This document shows, one piece after another, positions 14,684 to 55,235 of a DNA stretch of 64,000 bases (the first letter of the stretch is position 1; the number at the start of each line of letters is the position of its first letter). A program made the translations under genes and the position numbers. The stretch comes from a virus. The notes beneath the pieces were generated by a model. It was not told the DNA's origin, did no database searches, and worked only from the letters and a program-made list of their open reading frames with translations. The stretch lies in IMG/VR virus record IMGVR_UViG_3300025237_000001, positions 32,001-96,000 of that record; one strand, given 5' to 3'.

Positions 14684-16102
14684 TTAACCAATTCTTTCGT
14701 CAACTTGGTTCACAATATCAAAAGTAATTACGTTTTTAAGTGTTGATACTTCGTAGCTTGATTTTGCTTTAATATCGAGGTAATACCTTTGTGGTACTAG
14801 ACTTGCGGTATCCAATAAAAAATAATTATGGTTGAATGCAATCTCAACTGACGTATAATCAATTACAGTATATTCAGCGTTACCTTCTTTAATATAAATT
14901 CTATATTCTAAGGCATCTAAAACTTCTTGTTCGTTAACTGTATAAGGGACTCTAGCAGAAATTCTAATTTTTCTAACATCACCTCTGTTGATTTTTTCCT
15001 TGTCTTTAACTCCAGATACATTAAATGTAAAATCTAATGGGATTGAAGTATCAGAACCAAGACCATAATATTCACCAGCGTCCTTCAATTCAAATTCCAT
15101 TTCAATATCGGGTCTAGTAACACCGTTGATTACAACTCCTGACCAAACGTCTTCATATAGTACACAACCAATTGAAGTTGTTGGTACCATTAAATCGATT
15201 GAATAAACTCCTTGAGATATGTGAGTGATACCACTACTAGTAATAGCTGAAAATACATCACCTGAATTATCTAATATTGATACGCTCATACCTGACATAA
15301 CATCAACGTCTGTAGGTATTCCACCAACATTAACATATAAATAAAGTTTATTATTTTTATCTAGATAGAATTTACCTCTATCATCGTTGATTGTTTCTGA
15401 ATATCTACTTTCTACATAAGGTTCATAGAAAGTTTGTGTATGTCGAGTAAAGAACCCAACGTATTTTAAATTATCTAAGACATCATTTTCACGAGCCTCA
15501 TCAAATGCGATTCCTAACCCATTGTTAGTATCACCTGTTAAATATGCATTTACAATGTCAGTAACATCCATTTCAAGATTTTCATTACCATCTTCAAAGT
15601 GTTGTGTTACTAAGGTTTGTCCAGTCCATCCAGAGAATACACCACTACCATTAGCCCAAACAGTACCTGTCTCCGCTTCAATCCAATTTGAAGCAGCATT
15701 GCTATATACTGACGAATCAGATGAAGTGAAATATTTTTGACCAGCAAAATCATAACCCACACCTTCATCCCAAGGTTGGTTAACTGCAAATAAGTTTAAG
15801 TTGAAAGATGATGTTCTATCTTTACCATCACCAGTTTCTTTACTTAGTAAAGAATCATCGAATGTCCCAGTATTGGTCATTCTAAGTGTGTGTTTTAATT
15901 TAGATAAATCAGGATACATACCTTTATCTCTAAACGCTTCGATTCTTGAGGTATCGAATTGAAAGATATATCTTGTGAATAGTGGATTTTCAGTTGTCCA
16001 CACACCACCGTAAAATAATTCAGCTACAGGGTTTTTACCTGTATTGGTATTATCATTGTAAACCAGTGTGTTATTTCTATCGAAGTATGTTCTTAGTACC
16101 AT
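14684..16102 (-). CDS. virion structural protein (beta-rich, DNRLRE-like N-domain, Ig-like C-domains)
   Basis: 472 aa; TRYIFQFD...MDVTDIVNAYL..NNGLGI..FFTRHTQT pattern; TATTTATA upstream. Confidence 0.55.
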   Translation of the reverse strand: MVLRTYFDRNNTLVYNDNTNTGKNPVAELFYGGVWTTENPLFTRYIFQFDTSRIEAFRDKGMYPDLSKLKHTLRMTNTGTFDDSLLSKETGDGKDRTSSFNLNLFAVNQPWDEGVGYDFAGQKYFTSSDSSVYSNAASNWIEAETGTVWANGSGVFSGWTGQTLVTQHFEDGNENLEMDVTDIVNAYLTGDTNNGLGIAFDEARENDVLDNLKYVGFFTRHTQTFYEPYVESRYSETINDDRGKFYLDKNNKLYLYVNVGGIPTDVDVMSGMSVSILDNSGDVFSAITSSGITHISQGVYSIDLMVPTTSIGCVLYEDVWSGVVINGVTRPDIEMEFELKDAGEYYGLGSDTSIPLDFTFNVSGVKDKEKINRGDVRKIRISARVPYTVNEQEVLDALEYRIYIKEGNAEYTVIDYTSVEIAFNHNYFLLDTASLVPQRYYLDIKAKSSYEVSTLKNVITFDIVNQVDERIG

Positions 16103-23482: not shown

Positions 23483-24202
23483 TTAATCTTTGTCAGTTTT
23501 TTTGTAATTATTCACAATCTTTGTTATTAGTGGGTTTCTAACAATATCATTCTCATCAAATTCAAAGAACCCGATTTCTGGAATATTGTTATGTCTATTC
23601 ATCGCATCATATAACCCAGTTTTCTCAATAGAATCATATCTATCGGATTGGTCCATATCACCAGAAATTATAAATTTAGAACCATAGCCGATTCTAGTTA
23701 AAAGCGTCTTCATTTGAGATGCTGACATATTCTGAGCTTCCTCCACAATTAAAATGGAATTATCAATCGACTTACCTCTAATGAAACCTAATGCTTCACC
23801 GATAAGTTCTTCAGACTCTTCTAATTTAATTCTTTTTTCTTTGGAAACTAATTTATCAACAATATCAATCGATGATGCTAAGTATGGTGCTAATTTTTCT
23901 TTTAAATTACCTGGTAAGAAACCAAGGTTCTCTTCAGCTTCAACAGCTGGTGTGATAATTAGTATTTTTCTAAAGGATGTTGTAGTGTCTTGAAGTAATT
24001 GAATTGCTGCTGCGATTGCTATATAGGATTTTCCTACACCAGCTGGTCCAGCACAAATTATTATTTCTCGGTCCTTTATTAATTTAACGTATTCTTTTTG
24101 TTTTACGTTCTTACATTTTAAAACTAGTTTTTTAGGTAATATTTTATTTACCTCATAAACCTTAGATTTAACTGTATCGGTACTTACTTGTCTTTTTGCC
24201 AT
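23483..24202 (-). CDS. phoH: PhoH-like ATPase
   Basis: GPAGVGKS, LGFLPGNLKEKLAPY, FIRGKSIDNSILIVEEAQN, GDMDQSD, DIVRNPL; start moved to 24202. Confidence 0.93.
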   Translation of the reverse strand: MAKRQVSTDTVKSKVYEVNKILPKKLVLKCKNVKQKEYVKLIKDREIIICAGPAGVGKSYIAIAAAIQLLQDTTTSFRKILIITPAVEAEENLGFLPGNLKEKLAPYLASSIDIVDKLVSKEKRIKLEESEELIGEALGFIRGKSIDNSILIVEEAQNMSASQMKTLLTRIGYGSKFIISGDMDQSDRYDSIEKTGLYDAMNRHNNIPEIGFFEFDENDIVRNPLITKIVNNYKKTDKD

Positions 24203-24276
24203 AAAAAAATGTGAACTTATTGATAAGTTCACACTAAATATAATAACAAAATTTAAAAACTAAATAAAAAAGTCTA

Positions 24277-50464: not shown

Positions 50465-50494
50465 AAAAAGAGACTCAAATTTGAGTCTCTTTTT
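50465..50494. terminator. bidirectional terminator between the convergent neck and polB genes, overlapping the polB stop
   Basis: AAAAAGAGACTCAA-at-TTGAGTCTCTTTTT. Confidence 0.85.
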
Positions 50495-53400
50495 CTTCTA
50501 GTACATGTTTGTAATCTTCGATATCTAATTCAATTCCAGCTAATTTTAATTCAGCTCTAATGAAACTAGCTTTAGCATCATCTTTAGCTTTCTTAGCTTC
50601 AACCCATATATGAGTTAACCAAGTCTCGAAAGTCTTATCTTTCTTATATTTAACTGTTGGGTAGAACGGTACTCGTTGCTTCGCCCAAGGTTCATACTTT
50701 AGTATATCAGTTACTTTACATAAATCAATATCCCAAAGTTTAGATTTAATATAAATATTTGGGGTTCCATTTTCATCATCGTGAACAACAAACTCACCCA
50801 TATTAGCGAATGGTTTAGGTATTTCACTACTTTCTTTCATCAATTGAATTTCATCCCATTCTAAACGCTTCATAATTTCAGTCGTTCTTTTTCTCTCATG
50901 AGCCATTCCTTCAATTCTAGCAATTCTCATACGCTCATGATAATCCGTTTGTATCCATTCCCAATTCATGTTTAATTCAACAAGGTTATTTGGTTCTTTA
51001 TTAACTCTAATCCAAAACTCAATTTCCTTATCTTCCATGTCCATTAACTCACTCATTGTATTTTGGTCACCATCTTTAAAAGCAGTACCTCTATCCATTT
51101 CAGTGTCTTTTTTTGTAAAGATTTTTCTTTCAGTTAATTCCATTTCTTTAGTTTCCTTGTTCTTAACCATGTCCATTAGAATTGCCTCCCTAATTTCAGG
51201 TTTGAAACAAACTAATAATGCGTGAATTCTATTATTGAAAGCCGCTAAATACTTTGGTACGTTATATTCGTCAGTTGTCAAATCAGGGTTATTCTCTATT
51301 TGGTCTGTTGGTATTACTTTACATTGAATCTTAACAGTTCTATCACCAGTTTCTTTATCAGTAATAACTTTAACATCACCATGAGATTTAACACTACCTA
51401 TGTTAACATAGTAAATTGTATCACCTAAATTAGATTTGATACCATCTTGCATTATCAATTCCATATGAGCTTTTCTAGCTTTAAATGAACCTGATTTTGT
51501 TTTGGTTTTCATATCTCTTAAATACGAAGACACTGTATCCTTAACATTAGACTTCGAAGCTATTTTAAGCAATGGAATTCTAAAATTGTAGATGTCATCT
51601 ACTGTCTTGTTATATAACTGAACGAACTTATCTCCTTCACCATTTAAAAGATGTTCAATTCCTATGGCTAAGAAGTCTTCAATATATCCTGGCATTTTAG
51701 ATGACTTAATCGTATTCCCAACCAATTTAATTTTACCATCAATTAAGTTAGCATAATTCTTTCTAGAGAAGTTGATGGTAGACTCACAGATATCATCAAT
51801 ATCTAGACCCATTCTATCAATCATAAATAATTCGTTGAACTCAGCAACAACTGCGTCTAATCCTACAAGAGTATTACCTTTATCAGGTTCAGTAAACCTA
51901 TGAGTACCAAGAGGCACATATGAGTTTTCATTGATATTATCGGGGATGGCAAAGTTAAATCCATCCGTATCCCCTACAAGAGGTCTGAAATCTAAATCCA
52001 TAAAGAATTTAACCATCAATCTCAAGTATTGTCTACCTCTACAGGTAGTTTCCTCAGCAATATTAGTATCTCCCCATGGAAATATATTGGGAGCACCCAT
52101 CGAACCAAAGAATGAATTCGCTAAAATCTTAATTGGTAATTGTTTCTTATCGTACATACTAACTAAAGCAGTCTCTTTTGCAATTTCCTCATTTAACATG
52201 TCTAAATCTTCTTTAGACATTGTATCACCAGTCTTTTCTTTCAATTCTTTTAAACCACTCAACACACCTTTATGTTTATTCATAAGGTTCTTGAATTTAT
52301 CCCTTGTATTTGCAATATACGTTAAGAAACCTTTCATCGCACCAGTAATATCAGTGTCAGGAAAAATATCGTGAGTAATCTTAATATTAGGGTATAAGGC
52401 AGCAAAATCCAATTTTGCGACATTTTTAGCATATCCAAGTTCTAATACTCTTGAGAGTCCACCTGTAAATGTTTTTCTTGGTTTTGTTGCTGGAACAGCT
52501 AATCTATTCTCGTATGACCAAGCTAACATAATTAATTTCCAAATACCAGCAGTACCCATCGTTGTTGAACGCATGTACGTTGTAGGAATAATCTTAGATA
52601 GTAAGAAAGATGCTTGATTGTAAACACCATCCACTTGTTCTGTTTCCCATAAATCATCTAATAAATAACGTCTGATAATAATATTACCTTTAACAACCTC
52701 ATAACCTTCTTTTAAGGGCTTTTCTTCACTTATTGGGTAGTAAGTACCATCAGTATCATTAAAAGCGTAATCAGTTACCTTATCGTTCCAAATTTCGAAT
52801 ATTTTATTACCTTCTACATACACACGATTGGCTTTGTTAAGTTTTGAGTATTTTGTAATATACTTTAACCCAGCACTTTTAATGTTTGAGTTAATCGCTT
52901 TGGCTCTACGTACTGCGTGCCAAACATCGATTATATTATAACCCCACATTGTAGTTTGCTTATAGAATTCACTTTCACCACCTAACTTGATGCTTTTGTC
53001 AACTCTTCTAATTTTAGAACCACCTTTCTTATCAAGTGTCTTTGCAGCAATTTCAATGTCTAATCCGATAATATCACATCTTGTGAATATGAAACTCCAG
53101 TCAAAGTTTTCAGAGTTATATCCAGCAATAGTGTCAGGTTTCAACGTATCTATAATGTCAAACATTTTAAGTATAGCGTAAGCTTCGAAATCTTTTAATT
53201 CTTGCTTAGTACCTTCTTGTGGAACTTCTATAATTTCTTCAAAACCTCTATTATCTTTAATTCCAATTTGGAATATCTTAGCATCTTTAAGTCTAATTGG
53301 TTCACCAGCAACATCAAACTCATATAATTTAGTTAAATCTTCTCCAGTTCCCATACGACTTTTAACCTCCAAAATATCTTCTTGTGATAGAAGTGTACCT

Positions 53401-53933
53401 TTAGGGTAAAGACCAGTTGTTTCTAAATCAAATTGTAATCTATGAATATCATTATAATCTTCCATTCCTTTGAACAAACGCTTTCCTGATGCGATTAAAT
53501 ATTGTTCCACTGGATTTATGGCTATGAACATACTTCTGTGACGTTCACCATAAACATCGATACCACCTTCTTTGAAGAAATTGAGTACTTTAGTATAAGA
53601 ACCTTTGGTTTTAGCCATGTATTTGTAACCCGAAGCCATTCTTTTAGGTTCGGCTTCATCTGGCATTGAAGATTTTAGTTTTGTAATTACGATGCCGTAT
53701 TTCTCAGCAGCTTTTTTGATAAGAGTTCGTTTACCGCCATACATTATTTTGGTAACTTCTTCTTTAAACCATATAAATGATGTAAGTGCATCTTTTGATA
53801 TGAACTTTCCTCTTTCAGGGTCATTGATTATAAGCGAAACTTCAGCACTCCCATAAGGAATCTCAACACCTACAATATATTTTTTTTGATTTCTACCTTC
53901 TAAAAACCTAGAAATTACATCCTCATTAATCAT
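50475..53933 (-). CDS. polB: DNA polymerase family B with 3'-5' exonuclease
   Basis: FDLETTG, GYNSENFDW, YLLDD (Exo I-III); LDFAALYP, KILANSFFG, GDTDG (pol motifs A-C). Confidence 0.95.
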   Translation of the reverse strand: MINEDVISRFLEGRNQKKYIVGVEIPYGSAEVSLIINDPERGKFISKDALTSFIWFKEEVTKIMYGGKRTLIKKAAEKYGIVITKLKSSMPDEAEPKRMASGYKYMAKTKGSYTKVLNFFKEGGIDVYGERHRSMFIAINPVEQYLIASGKRLFKGMEDYNDIHRLQFDLETTGLYPKGTLLSQEDILEVKSRMGTGEDLTKLYEFDVAGEPIRLKDAKIFQIGIKDNRGFEEIIEVPQEGTKQELKDFEAYAILKMFDIIDTLKPDTIAGYNSENFDWSFIFTRCDIIGLDIEIAAKTLDKKGGSKIRRVDKSIKLGGESEFYKQTTMWGYNIIDVWHAVRRAKAINSNIKSAGLKYITKYSKLNKANRVYVEGNKIFEIWNDKVTDYAFNDTDGTYYPISEEKPLKEGYEVVKGNIIIRRYLLDDLWETEQVDGVYNQASFLLSKIIPTTYMRSTTMGTAGIWKLIMLAWSYENRLAVPATKPRKTFTGGLSRVLELGYAKNVAKLDFAALYPNIKITHDIFPDTDITGAMKGFLTYIANTRDKFKNLMNKHKGVLSGLKELKEKTGDTMSKEDLDMLNEEIAKETALVSMYDKKQLPIKILANSFFGSMGAPNIFPWGDTNIAEETTCRGRQYLRLMVKFFMDLDFRPLVGDTDGFNFAIPDNINENSYVPLGTHRFTEPDKGNTLVGLDAVVAEFNELFMIDRMGLDIDDICESTINFSRKNYANLIDGKIKLVGNTIKSSKMPGYIEDFLAIGIEHLLNGEGDKFVQLYNKTVDDIYNFRIPLLKIASKSNVKDTVSSYLRDMKTKTKSGSFKARKAHMELIMQDGIKSNLGDTIYYVNIGSVKSHGDVKVITDKETGDRTVKIQCKVIPTDQIENNPDLTTDEYNVPKYLAAFNNRIHALLVCFKPEIREAILMDMVKNKETKEMELTERKIFTKKDTEMDRGTAFKDGDQNTMSELMDMEDKEIEFWIRVNKEPNNLVELNMNWEWIQTDYHERMRIARIEGMAHERKRTTEIMKRLEWDEIQLMKESSEIPKPFANMGEFVVHDDENGTPNIYIKSKLWDIDLCKVTDILKYEPWAKQRVPFYPTVKYKKDKTFETWLTHIWVEAKKAKDDAKASFIRAELKLAGIELDIEDYKHVLEEKETQI

Positions 53934-54044
53934 AATTATTATCTATTTTATGCAATATAACTACATTTTGACCCAAAAAACAAGGGTTTTGTCATATTTT
54001 TTAAAATAAATTACTGTAAGCCAGGTTATGTCATATTTATTTGT

Positions 54045-54899
54045 ATGACAAAAGATATAAAATGTAACACAAATAATATCCATGATTTCATGGAAAATTA
54101 TAAATCAGGTTTTAATAAAATTAAATCAGAATATGAAGTATTTGAATACTACGATTTTGAAAGAGAAATTGTAAATTTGATTAATGATAATCGTTTTTCG
54201 ATTATATTAAAAGGTAGACAAGTTTTTGTGAGTACGATTTTAGCTACTTATACTGCTTGGCAAGTTTTAAATGGTAAACAGATTGCTTATTATAGTCATA
54301 ATAGACATATGTCTAAACATTTTTTAACTAAAGTAAGAGCGATATTAATGAGTTATGGTGCAGAATTTGAATGTGATAATCAAATTTACATTAAATTGAA
54401 AGGTTTAGGTTCGATAAAAGGTTTATGCACCCCAACAGAGTTTTGTAGTCACACATTTGATGAAATAATCTATGATGAAGCCGCATATATTAATAGGTTT
54501 AATGAAGCTTTAAGTATTGGGACTTCAATTATTGCAACAGGTGGTAAAATTATTTTAGCTTCTACACCTAATGGTCTGGAAAAATTTTTTTATACATGGC
54601 AAGGTAGTGAAGTTGGTGATAATCCTTTTAAAAGGATTAAAGTCACTTATAAAGATGTTCCTATATATGATGAAGCGTGGGCTGAAGAAATGAAAAGGAT
54701 TATGAATTATAATAAAAGGTGGATTGACCAAGAACTTCATGCTGAATTTATACCAGCATTAAAAAATAATAAAAATAAATTAATTCAATTTAGAATTGAT
54801 AAAGATTTGAATTTAAAATTGTTAGAAAAATTAATAGAGAAAGATGTTAATATTTCAACCTATATGCGAGATTTAATTCTCAAGGATGTGAATAATTAA
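54045..54899 (+). CDS. terminase-large-subunit-like ATPase domain fused to a C-terminal ribbon-helix-helix domain; no nuclease domain
   Basis: RFSIILKGRQVFVST, IIYDEAAYI, GGKIILASTPNG, DQELHAEF; then LIQFRIDKDLNLKL..EKDVNISTYMRDLI. Confidence 0.72.
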   Translation: MTKDIKCNTNNIHDFMENYKSGFNKIKSEYEVFEYYDFEREIVNLINDNRFSIILKGRQVFVSTILATYTAWQVLNGKQIAYYSHNRHMSKHFLTKVRAILMSYGAEFECDNQIYIKLKGLGSIKGLCTPTEFCSHTFDEIIYDEAAYINRFNEALSIGTSIIATGGKIILASTPNGLEKFFYTWQGSEVGDNPFKRIKVTYKDVPIYDEAWAEEMKRIMNYNKRWIDQELHAEFIPALKNNKNKLIQFRIDKDLNLKLLEKLIEKDVNISTYMRDLILKDVNN

Positions 54900-55235
54900 T
54901 TCATCCCTTATTGGTACCAATAGGGTTCCCGAACCATCGTTAAAGATTATTTTGAATTCACCAACGAATGTGCCAGCTTTTCTAGTTTCTTTTGCTGAAA
55001 ATTGATATCCGATGAAATATTCTTCACCGTTACAATCACTTGAAGGGTCTTTAAGAATACATAAACCTTCCTTACCACCTATTCTTTTAACGCCAGTGCT
55101 AGTGTCGGTCATACAGAATGTAATTACAGAGTTTTGTATCATATCGTGGAACTTATCGTACTCATTTCTTCCATCGTTAATTAATTCCATCTTTAAGATA
55201 GGTAATGTTGCAGTTTTATTTATGTAAAAATCCAT
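54873..55235 (-). CDS. BppU-like Ig-fold virion/baseplate protein
   Basis: TLPILKMEL...YQFSAKETRKAGTFVGEFKIIF..G.L.VP. Confidence 0.55.
   Translation of the reverse strand: MDFYINKTATLPILKMELINDGRNEYDKFHDMIQNSVITFCMTDTSTGVKRIGGKEGLCILKDPSSDCNGEEYFIGYQFSAKETRKAGTFVGEFKIIFNDGSGTLLVPIRDELIIHILEN

Follow-up and report, generated by a model that had tools for sequence, protein, structure and literature searches.

A terminase ATPase paralogue with a ribbon-helix-helix tail and a candidate operator at its own promoter in uncultured marine phages

Results

A lone gene next to polB in a T4-like marine phage

The stretch analysed here, called the window throughout, comprises 64,000 nucleotides and corresponds to bases 32001-96000 of a linear 197-kb IMG/VR viral record (IMGVR_UViG_3300025237_000001), for which completeness is estimated at ~56%. 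The record originates from marine metagenomes, with three marine metagenome DNA runs and no RNA run listed. Its genes are those of a T4-like phage and include a gp20-type portal, a gp13-like neck protein, a sheath and a family-B polymerase. The phage is nevertheless remote from isolates, as its own large terminase subunit (TerL) shares at most 30% identity with those of Microcystis phage Mel-JY01 and Flavobacterium phage immuto. Our subject is an open reading frame (ORF) of 284 residues at 54045-54899 on the plus strand, with an alternative start at ATG 54090 (269 residues), which encodes a TerL-type ATPase domain followed by a ribbon-helix-helix (RHH) tail. It is a lone plus-strand gene: the family-B polymerase gene polB (50475-53933, minus strand) is its divergent neighbour, and an ORF of 120 residues converges on it from the other side. 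A first-pass annotation, made from the sequence without database searches, had placed both the ORF and its divergence from polB correctly.

The convergent ORF (54873-55235, minus strand) matches no family, overlaps the 3' end of the ATPase-RHH gene by 27 nt, and carries its own TATTTATA motif 22 nt upstream. The same 27-nt overlap is kept in three related loci (L004, L007 and L010).

A gp17-type ATPase domain joined to a ribbon-helix-helix tail

Residues ~16-236 (54090-54752, plus strand) form an ATPase domain of the T4 gp17 type. Residues 26-236 match the PHROG family phrog_2 'terminase large subunit' (E 3e-16), and a profile built from the protein and eight homologues retrieves T4/RB49 gp17 from the Protein Data Bank (PDB) with an E value of 6e-21. 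A Foldseek search with the AlphaFold2 model of the protein (predicted local distance difference test, pLDDT, 81.5; predicted template modelling score, pTM, 0.74) ranks the T4 gp17 ATPase domain 2o0j first (E 4e-14), ahead of other terminase ATPase domains. The domain shares 29% identity with the ATPase half of the TerL encoded by the same phage, and the two have the stretches KxRQxxVST, DEAA(F/Y)I, STPNG and NKRxIxQEL..F in common. This similarity ends at the QE..AEF hinge, the boundary between ATPase and nuclease in TerL. No RNase H-like nuclease domain follows; the protein ends 48 residues past the hinge, with the RHH tail.

The tail, residues 246-284 (54780-54896, plus strand), reads LIQFRI / DKDLNLKLLEKLIEK / DVNIS / TYMRDLILKDV. 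In the AlphaFold2 model it consists of a strand with alternating hydrophobic and polar residues (LIQFRI) and two helices (residues 253-266 and 270-283) joined by a turn, N-I-S271. The tails of six of the eight homologues match the Pfam families NikA-like (best E 3e-6) and CopG_antitoxin (6e-6), and single members additionally match HicB, RHH_1, RHH_3, RHH_5, Arc, RelB, CcdA and FitA-like, all RHH families by name. A profile of the tails returns weak matches to MazE6, AvtR and RelB from the PDB. When two copies of residues 238-284 were folded together, the ipSAE score reached 0.72, compared to 0.07 for the best of three controls; of 30 proteins solved as pairs of one chain, 20 attained the mark used for this score, as did one of 23 that had been solved as single chains. 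Contacts agreed to at least 97% between the three runs, with partner pLDDT values of at least 84. The modelled contacts comprise antiparallel strand pairs (247/249 and 248/248) and a helix-2 contact (277/277), so that the tail is modelled as a homodimer held by an antiparallel beta ribbon, an arrangement already known from solved complexes. Since many solved structures are RHH dimers, the model demonstrates likeness rather than proof. The homologous tails thus match RHH profiles in sequence, and the strand-helix-helix dimer is seen in the model. A column of a MAFFT alignment that paired tail residues Y273 and D281 with the first nuclease strand of TerL was judged to be a forced artefact of global alignment. 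On both points the first-pass annotation, which had read the protein as a gp17-type ATPase domain up to the hinge with an RHH in the place of the nuclease, is borne out.

A complete TerL elsewhere in the genome

The phage possesses a complete TerL of 621 residues (genome 30344-32209, plus strand; L001:1444-3309). Its gene begins 1656 nt before the window and directly precedes that of the portal. The protein matches gp17 (E 3e-19) as well as the RB49 nuclease domain 3c6a (E 1e-6), and its nuclease motifs, ILASDVARGDGED and GYHDDLLMAL, align with the corresponding segments of gp17. The full terminase that the first-pass annotation had expected elsewhere in the genome, separate from the ATPase-RHH gene, is thus present. 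Its supposed position at the window start is right insofar as the last 209 nt of the TerL gene occupy positions 1-209, but the first whole gene there, at 268-2277, encodes the portal (Pfam Portal_T4, 2e-77). No nuclease ORF follows the ATPase-RHH gene, where the convergent 120-residue gene is found instead, and the complete TerL with its nuclease before the portal rules out that the ATPase-RHH gene is one half of a split terminase. A search of the record with PF17289 (Terminase_6C) found nothing, and as it missed even the nuclease of the true TerL, this blank is uninformative.

A third match to phrog_2 in the genome (window 23483-24232, minus strand) is not a terminase paralogue. This match is weak and could be misread as one; the protein, which carries the sequence GPAGVGKSY and lies within a block of glycosylation and auxiliary genes, is a PhoH-like P-loop protein. 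Directly upstream of TerL lie ORFs of 134, 154 and 409 residues (L001:116-1345 and L102:10146-11016; genome ~28.1-30.2 kb), none of which matches any Pfam or PHROG family. In T4, the small terminase (TerS) gene lies directly upstream of that for TerL.

A widespread family on a branch apart from TerLs

A word-indexed search found the eight homologues, of 243-298 residues. An exhaustive profile search of 1.84 billion representatives extended the family to at least 86 clusters at 50% identity, of 240-340 residues, which match to the last positions of the profile, including the tail; true TerLs, of 450-990 residues, match it only at positions ~1-228. All members of the family come from metagenomes. 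In an unrooted maximum-likelihood tree computed without the tail, 86 family members are split at a single branch (SH-aLRT 96) from 53 TerLs, which were those nearest the family profile rather than a balanced sample, and the phage's own TerL groups among the latter. As a family, the protein is maintained under selection.

Among isolated phages, tblastn with the window protein (P0001) and a distant member (P0047) against 50,697 phage records yielded only full TerLs at less than 30% identity. A structure search of BFVD returned TerLs, besides a 313-residue entry, A0A345MNB6, that was left outside the comparison. A scan of IMG/VR contributed one further family locus (L010), the remaining matches being TerLs, and neither NCBIfam nor PADLOC gave a match to the protein. 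The nearest cluster in the ESM Atlas, which has 81 members and may be the protein's own, is labelled 'Terminase large subunit N-terminal domain-containing'. A full-text literature search returned no description of a terminase ATPase-RHH protein, and a comparison of jumbo phages (PMC7824862) mentions none. The family is thus apparently undescribed so far.

Catalytic residues are eroded and the tail is conserved

The best-conserved part of the family is the tail: R250 is found in 85 of 86 members, S271 in 83 and Y273 in all, followed by L277 (83), R275 (81) and D281 (78). In the ATPase core, R58, Q59, D144, S173, F181 and E230 are also retained. Residues at the heart of catalysis, by comparison, have drifted relative to the 53 related TerLs. 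The upstream Walker A lysine (K56) is kept in 65% of the family as opposed to 98% of TerLs, the P-loop glycine (G61) in 27% (23/86) as opposed to all 53, and the adenine-binding glutamine (Q39) in 43% as opposed to 100%. The arginine ten residues before Walker B (R134), which we take to be the trans-acting finger equivalent to R139 of P74-26, remains in 45% of the family (39/86; TerLs 96%, 51/53). The catalytic glutamate (E145) is present in 64% (55/86; TerLs 96%) and is replaced by asparagine in 26% (22/86). The complete set of six residues (Walker A lysine, P-loop glycine, serine or threonine, arginine finger, aspartate and glutamate) occurs in a single one of the 86 members, versus 50 of the 53 TerLs.

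In the window copy the set reads K-F-S-C-D-E. Its Walker A motif, K56-G-R-Q-V-F-V-S-T64 (54210-54236, plus strand), keeps the lysine and S63 but has F61 at the position of the P-loop glycine; C134 takes the place of the finger and E39 that of the adenine-binding glutamine. Walker B with its catalytic glutamate, I-I-Y-D144-E145 (54465-54479, plus strand), is intact, and the residues S173-T174 are present. The first-pass annotation had called the GRQVFVST motif degenerate. The mere lack of GK[ST] does not make it so, because a form with an upstream lysine, K-x-R-Q-x-G-x-S-T, is normal in this clade, being used by the phage's own TerL and by 52 of the 53 related ones; deviant Walker A motifs of this sort have reportedly been described by Mitchell and Rao in 2004. 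The motif is degenerate by virtue of G61F, and R134C and Q39E are further real defects.

A promoter motif followed by a conserved pair of boxes

The gene is preceded at 54034-54040 (plus strand) by TATTTAT, the late motif that the first-pass annotation had claimed. The motif TATTTATA has 22 copies in the window, of which 11 have a correctly oriented start codon at most 45 nt downstream (~2% expected), mostly that of a virion gene; examples are found upstream of 2322, 5299, 8953, 14684-16102 (minus strand), 38732, 45455, 47187, 49288 and 60830. From this distribution, TATTTATA is likely the late promoter of this phage group. The late promoter of T4 is TATAAATA.

Directly after TATTTAT comes a near-palindromic sequence, TGTATGACA (box 1; 54042-54050, plus strand), a candidate half of an RHH operator that contains the ATG at 54045. 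A second sequence, TGTAACACA (box 2; 54063-54071, plus strand), follows 21 bp after box 1 and is a candidate site for a second RHH dimer. We compared 12 distinct loci reaching down to ~25% protein identity (the window, L004, L007, L010, L092, L105, L091, L094, L090, L103, L104 and L106). In all 12, a pair of (T)GTA-W-N-ACA boxes lies in the interval from -32 to +18 relative to the called start, mostly as the palindrome TGTA(A/T)TACA or as TGTATGACA, against a background of 0.018 boxes per 121 nt in the same loci. In ten loci the starts of the two boxes are 20-25 bp apart, most commonly 21. Box 1 starts 0-4 bp after TATTTAT, which is itself intact in ten loci, cut by the contig end in one and variant in another. 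Apart from this element, inspection revealed no evident similarity in the flanking DNA of the most distant loci. The composite pattern of promoter motif and boxes occurs exactly once in each of 17 loci with a family gene, five of which are copies of this genome, and in none of 85 other loci; the box pair is also unique within the 197-kb record.

Palindrome-like boxes two helical turns apart and just past a promoter would fit the classic layout of autorepression by two RHH dimers. The invariant arginine in the strand of the tail likewise fits the invariant TGTA/TACA half-sites, and we infer that the RHH binds to the boxes. The conserved element is this direct pair of TGTAnnACA boxes, downstream of an inverted repeat, TGTCATA-N8-TATGACA, that had been singled out earlier. 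The latter is unique in the window, but neither L004 nor L007 conserves its upstream arm. The sequence TTTGTCATA is no commoner in the genome than its control.

The position of the start codon bears on how the boxes are read. The ATG at 54045 lies within box 1, only 4 nt past TATTTAT, and a message translated from it would therefore be leaderless or nearly so. A public gene call for an identical protein (P0003, 269 residues) starts at ATG 54090, and in distant members of the family the start directly follows box 2. Within the subclade of the window, an I-H-(D/E)-F motif before M16 is kept, which favours translation from 54045.

A different element is found upstream of polB: a conserved block, GTGCAATATAACTAC (TTGCA... 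on the polB strand), spans window positions 53940-53975 and the aligned positions of L007 and L010. It is unlike the late-type motif and probably represents an early or middle promoter.

The polB neighbourhood is confined to closer relatives

In close and middle-distance relatives the gene is found among polB, glutaredoxin, an SNF2 helicase and a gp13-like gene, and it is always alone on its strand. Distant members adjoin a major-capsid-like gene, a GIY-YIG protein, a denV-like gene or nucleotidyltransferases. Since their neighbours are different, adjacency to polB is not a trait of the family and lends no support to a link with replication. The earlier proposal that the protein couples packaging to replication is not upheld, as the polB/SNF2/glutaredoxin neighbourhood is present only in closer relatives.

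The SNF2 helicase is 978-987 rather than 617 residues long in two of the loci (L007:12181-15144 and L092:8888-11824), with a faint LAGLIDADG match, which suggests that the longer forms carry an intein or a homing-endonuclease insertion.

Discussion

Relation to known systems

The sequence and the predicted fold indicate that the protein is an ancient paralogue of the ATPase domain of T4-type TerL, which has lost the nuclease and most of its catalysis and has gained a C-terminal RHH. It has the fold of the N-terminal ATPase domain of T4 gp17 and related enzymes (PDB 2o0h, 2o0j and 3cpe; PF03237 Terminase_6N) and the same order of motifs, namely adenine-binding region, Walker A, Walker B, coupling motif and hinge. 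Unlike T4-type TerL, it lacks the RNase H-like nuclease, bears the additional RHH and forms a group of its own in the tree, and its P-loop glycine, arginine finger and adenine-binding glutamine are replaced. With RHH repressors such as CopG, Arc, Mnt, MetJ, RelB, MazE6 and NikA (Pfam clan Met_repress), it has in common a beta-alpha-alpha unit of 40 residues, a predicted intertwined dimer with an antiparallel ribbon, the conserved arginine of the strand and the N-cap serine of helix 2, as well as short palindrome-like boxes two helical turns apart over its own promoter. In contrast to these repressors, its tail is fused to the C-terminal end of a terminase-derived domain of 240 residues, and DNA binding is here a prediction.

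Fusion of an enzyme with a repressor is known from PutA, a non-viral protein with an N-terminal RHH and active enzyme domains. The resemblance, an RHH combined with a large enzyme-derived domain at its own promoter, is one of analogy only, as there is no sequence relation. TerS might also be considered as a counterpart, inasmuch as it would likewise combine a DNA-binding module with a part that possibly contacts TerL and would have its site in or beside its own gene. The ATPase-RHH protein is, however, unrelated to known TerS families in sequence and fold; none is found among its Pfam and PHROG matches, and it shows no sign of forming rings.

An autoregulated terminase paralogue

How might such a protein act? 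We favour the view that it is an autoregulated, RHH-dimerised and catalytically degenerate paralogue of TerL, which serves as a regulator or modulator and employs its terminase-like domain as a binding or sensing module rather than as a motor. We assign this reading a probability of roughly 0.55, with the claims about structure standing on much firmer ground than those about function. The features of the family fit a regulator: conservation is highest in the RHH, catalytic positions have been eroded and a conserved operator-like pair of boxes stands at its own promoter. Of the domesticated terminase envisaged in the first-pass annotation as a regulator coupling packaging to replication, the combination of a TerL ATPase domain with an RHH in a family under selection thus stands, whereas the coupling does not. 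Nothing in the data speaks specifically for the two other roles proposed there, a dominant-negative modulator of packaging and a decoy for Avs-type defences.

We envision that the protein would dimerise through its RHH and that two dimers would occupy the two palindrome-like TGTAnnACA boxes, 21 bp or two helical turns apart. As these boxes overlie the presumed transcription start or 5' end of its own late-type promoter, binding would result in self-repression and a steady dose of the protein. The TerL-like domain, no longer the motor of a ring, might bind or sense a nucleotide or a packaging partner, be it TerL, the portal or the small terminase, and its occupancy might in turn modulate DNA binding or packaging.

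Several observations weigh against this view. The tail of the window copy, taken alone, matches CopG_antitoxin with an E value of only 0.08, which is below Pfam significance, and the separation of the family from TerLs is drawn from an unrooted tree with neighbouring rather than balanced TerLs. The boxes could instead belong to a special promoter or be the site of another factor; the phage also has a small candidate RHH gene with box-like sequences upstream of it (see below). With the start codon ambiguous between 54045 and 54090, the boxes would either be partly coding or fall wholly within the leader. Further binding sites may exist, given that the record is only ~56% complete. Finally, the window copy retains K56, R58, Q59, S63/T64, D144, E145 and S173/T174, so that some nucleotide binding or slow hydrolysis is possible.

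Alternative roles in packaging, DNA movement and defence

A broader and decidedly less probable scenario casts the protein as a terminase mimic in the packaging decision, its dose being set by RHH autoregulation. It might be a pac-like initiation subunit that replaces or supplements TerS, or else a brake that enters or caps the assembly of TerL and portal or that intercepts terminase-sensing immunity. If true, this would define a new class of packaging regulators derived from the motor itself and widespread in marine T4-like and jumbo phages.

The first of these options is the main rival to an autoregulated modulator, although we regard it as rather doubtful. The RHH would then read the box pair as a pac-like site, and the TerL-like domain would dock TerL to start cutting and packaging. 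A domain derived from TerL would conceivably be a natural partner of TerL, the promoter motif is of the late type, and the site is unique in the record. In phages such as P22 and SPP1, the pac site is located within the terS gene. This record has no recognisable TerS: a search with PF11053 came back empty, and the ORFs that precede TerL carry no annotation. Profiles often miss TerS proteins, however, and any of the three ORFs directly upstream of TerL could be one. Moreover, every member has its boxes exactly between the promoter motif and the start codon, the arrangement of an operator, and T4-type packaging has no known strict requirement for a pac site.

Might the protein instead be an active motor anchored to a specific loading site, from which it pumps or remodels DNA for replication, recombination or segregation? 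The window copy does keep the Walker A lysine, the D-E of Walker B and the S-T of the coupling motif, and the polB/glutaredoxin/SNF2 neighbourhood is kept in close relatives. The neighbourhood is, however, not retained in distant members, and the promoter motif is the one found before virion genes, unlike that of polB. Together with the replacement of arginine finger, P-loop glycine and adenine-binding glutamine, and with the loss of the full catalytic set in 85 of 86 members, this renders a motor function improbable.

Less probable again is an anti-defence decoy or sponge, a TerL look-alike that would occupy host sensors of terminase ATPases of the Avs1-3 type. Such a role would account for a TerL ATPase fold that is kept while catalysis is dispensable, and late timing would presumably coincide with TerL synthesis. 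On the other hand, a decoy would have no need of a conserved sequence-specific DNA-binding domain and an operator, and a mimic of TerL would be expected to trigger the sensors rather than to silence them. PADLOC and NCBIfam gave no match, and close relatives lack defence or anti-defence neighbours.

The least probable explanation, that the gene is a decaying duplicate or one half of a terminase that has been split or interrupted, could point to a protein spanning exactly the ATPase half of TerL, but it is very hard to reconcile with a complete TerL bearing nuclease motifs upstream of the portal, with a convergent 120-residue gene in place of a nuclease ORF, and with a length and RHH tail that are kept in at least 86 diverged clusters on one branch apart from TerLs.

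TerLs are commonly treated as invariant two-domain enzymes and serve as a universal marker of tailed phages. Here, the motor domain alone appears to have been duplicated, stripped of catalysis, rewired as a predicted DNA-binding protein and kept across a deep radiation of uncultured marine phages, which provides a concrete case of a viral motor turned pseudoenzyme, together with a predicted operator. Through this family, a hitherto unknown level of control over packaging or late gene expression may come to light. The family also calls for caution in annotation: its proteins of ~280 residues, which databases label 'terminase large subunit' or fragments thereof, can be taken for split or truncated TerLs when phylogenies are built or completeness is checked.

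Further observations

A small candidate RHH gene lies in a region ~1.4-1.7 kb past the end of the window (genome G000:C1:97390-97682; L099:1390-1682). This ORF of 51-62 residues (genome 97390-97578, minus strand) matches RepB-RCR_reg weakly (0.014) and is divergent from the tail-sheath gene. As a possible relative of the ATPase-RHH tail it was rejected: hhalign assigned a probability of 6%, and no relation is detectable. The spacer between the small ORF and the tail-sheath gene contains an inverted repeat, AAGTATGAC-N19-GTCATACTT, adjoining a perfect palindrome, TGTATTACA. The palindrome has only two copies in the 197-kb record, one of them here at genome position 97597, and a 12-mer, GTATGACAAAAG, is common to the inverted repeat and box 1. 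Judging from these resemblances, which were noticed post hoc, the ATPase-RHH protein, or else a shared regulon, may have a second target in this spacer.

Among the profile matches, several TerL fragments end in C(I/V)TGDT, a sequence typical of intein starts. One of the distant family members resides on a 67.7-kb ENA contig (L103) that also encodes SmpB, peptidyl-tRNA hydrolase, IF3 and ClpP as well as an anti-Pycsar Apyc1-like protein of the lactamase fold and an ADP-ribosylglycohydrolase; from its gene content, this contig looks like that of a large phage with translation and anti-defence genes.

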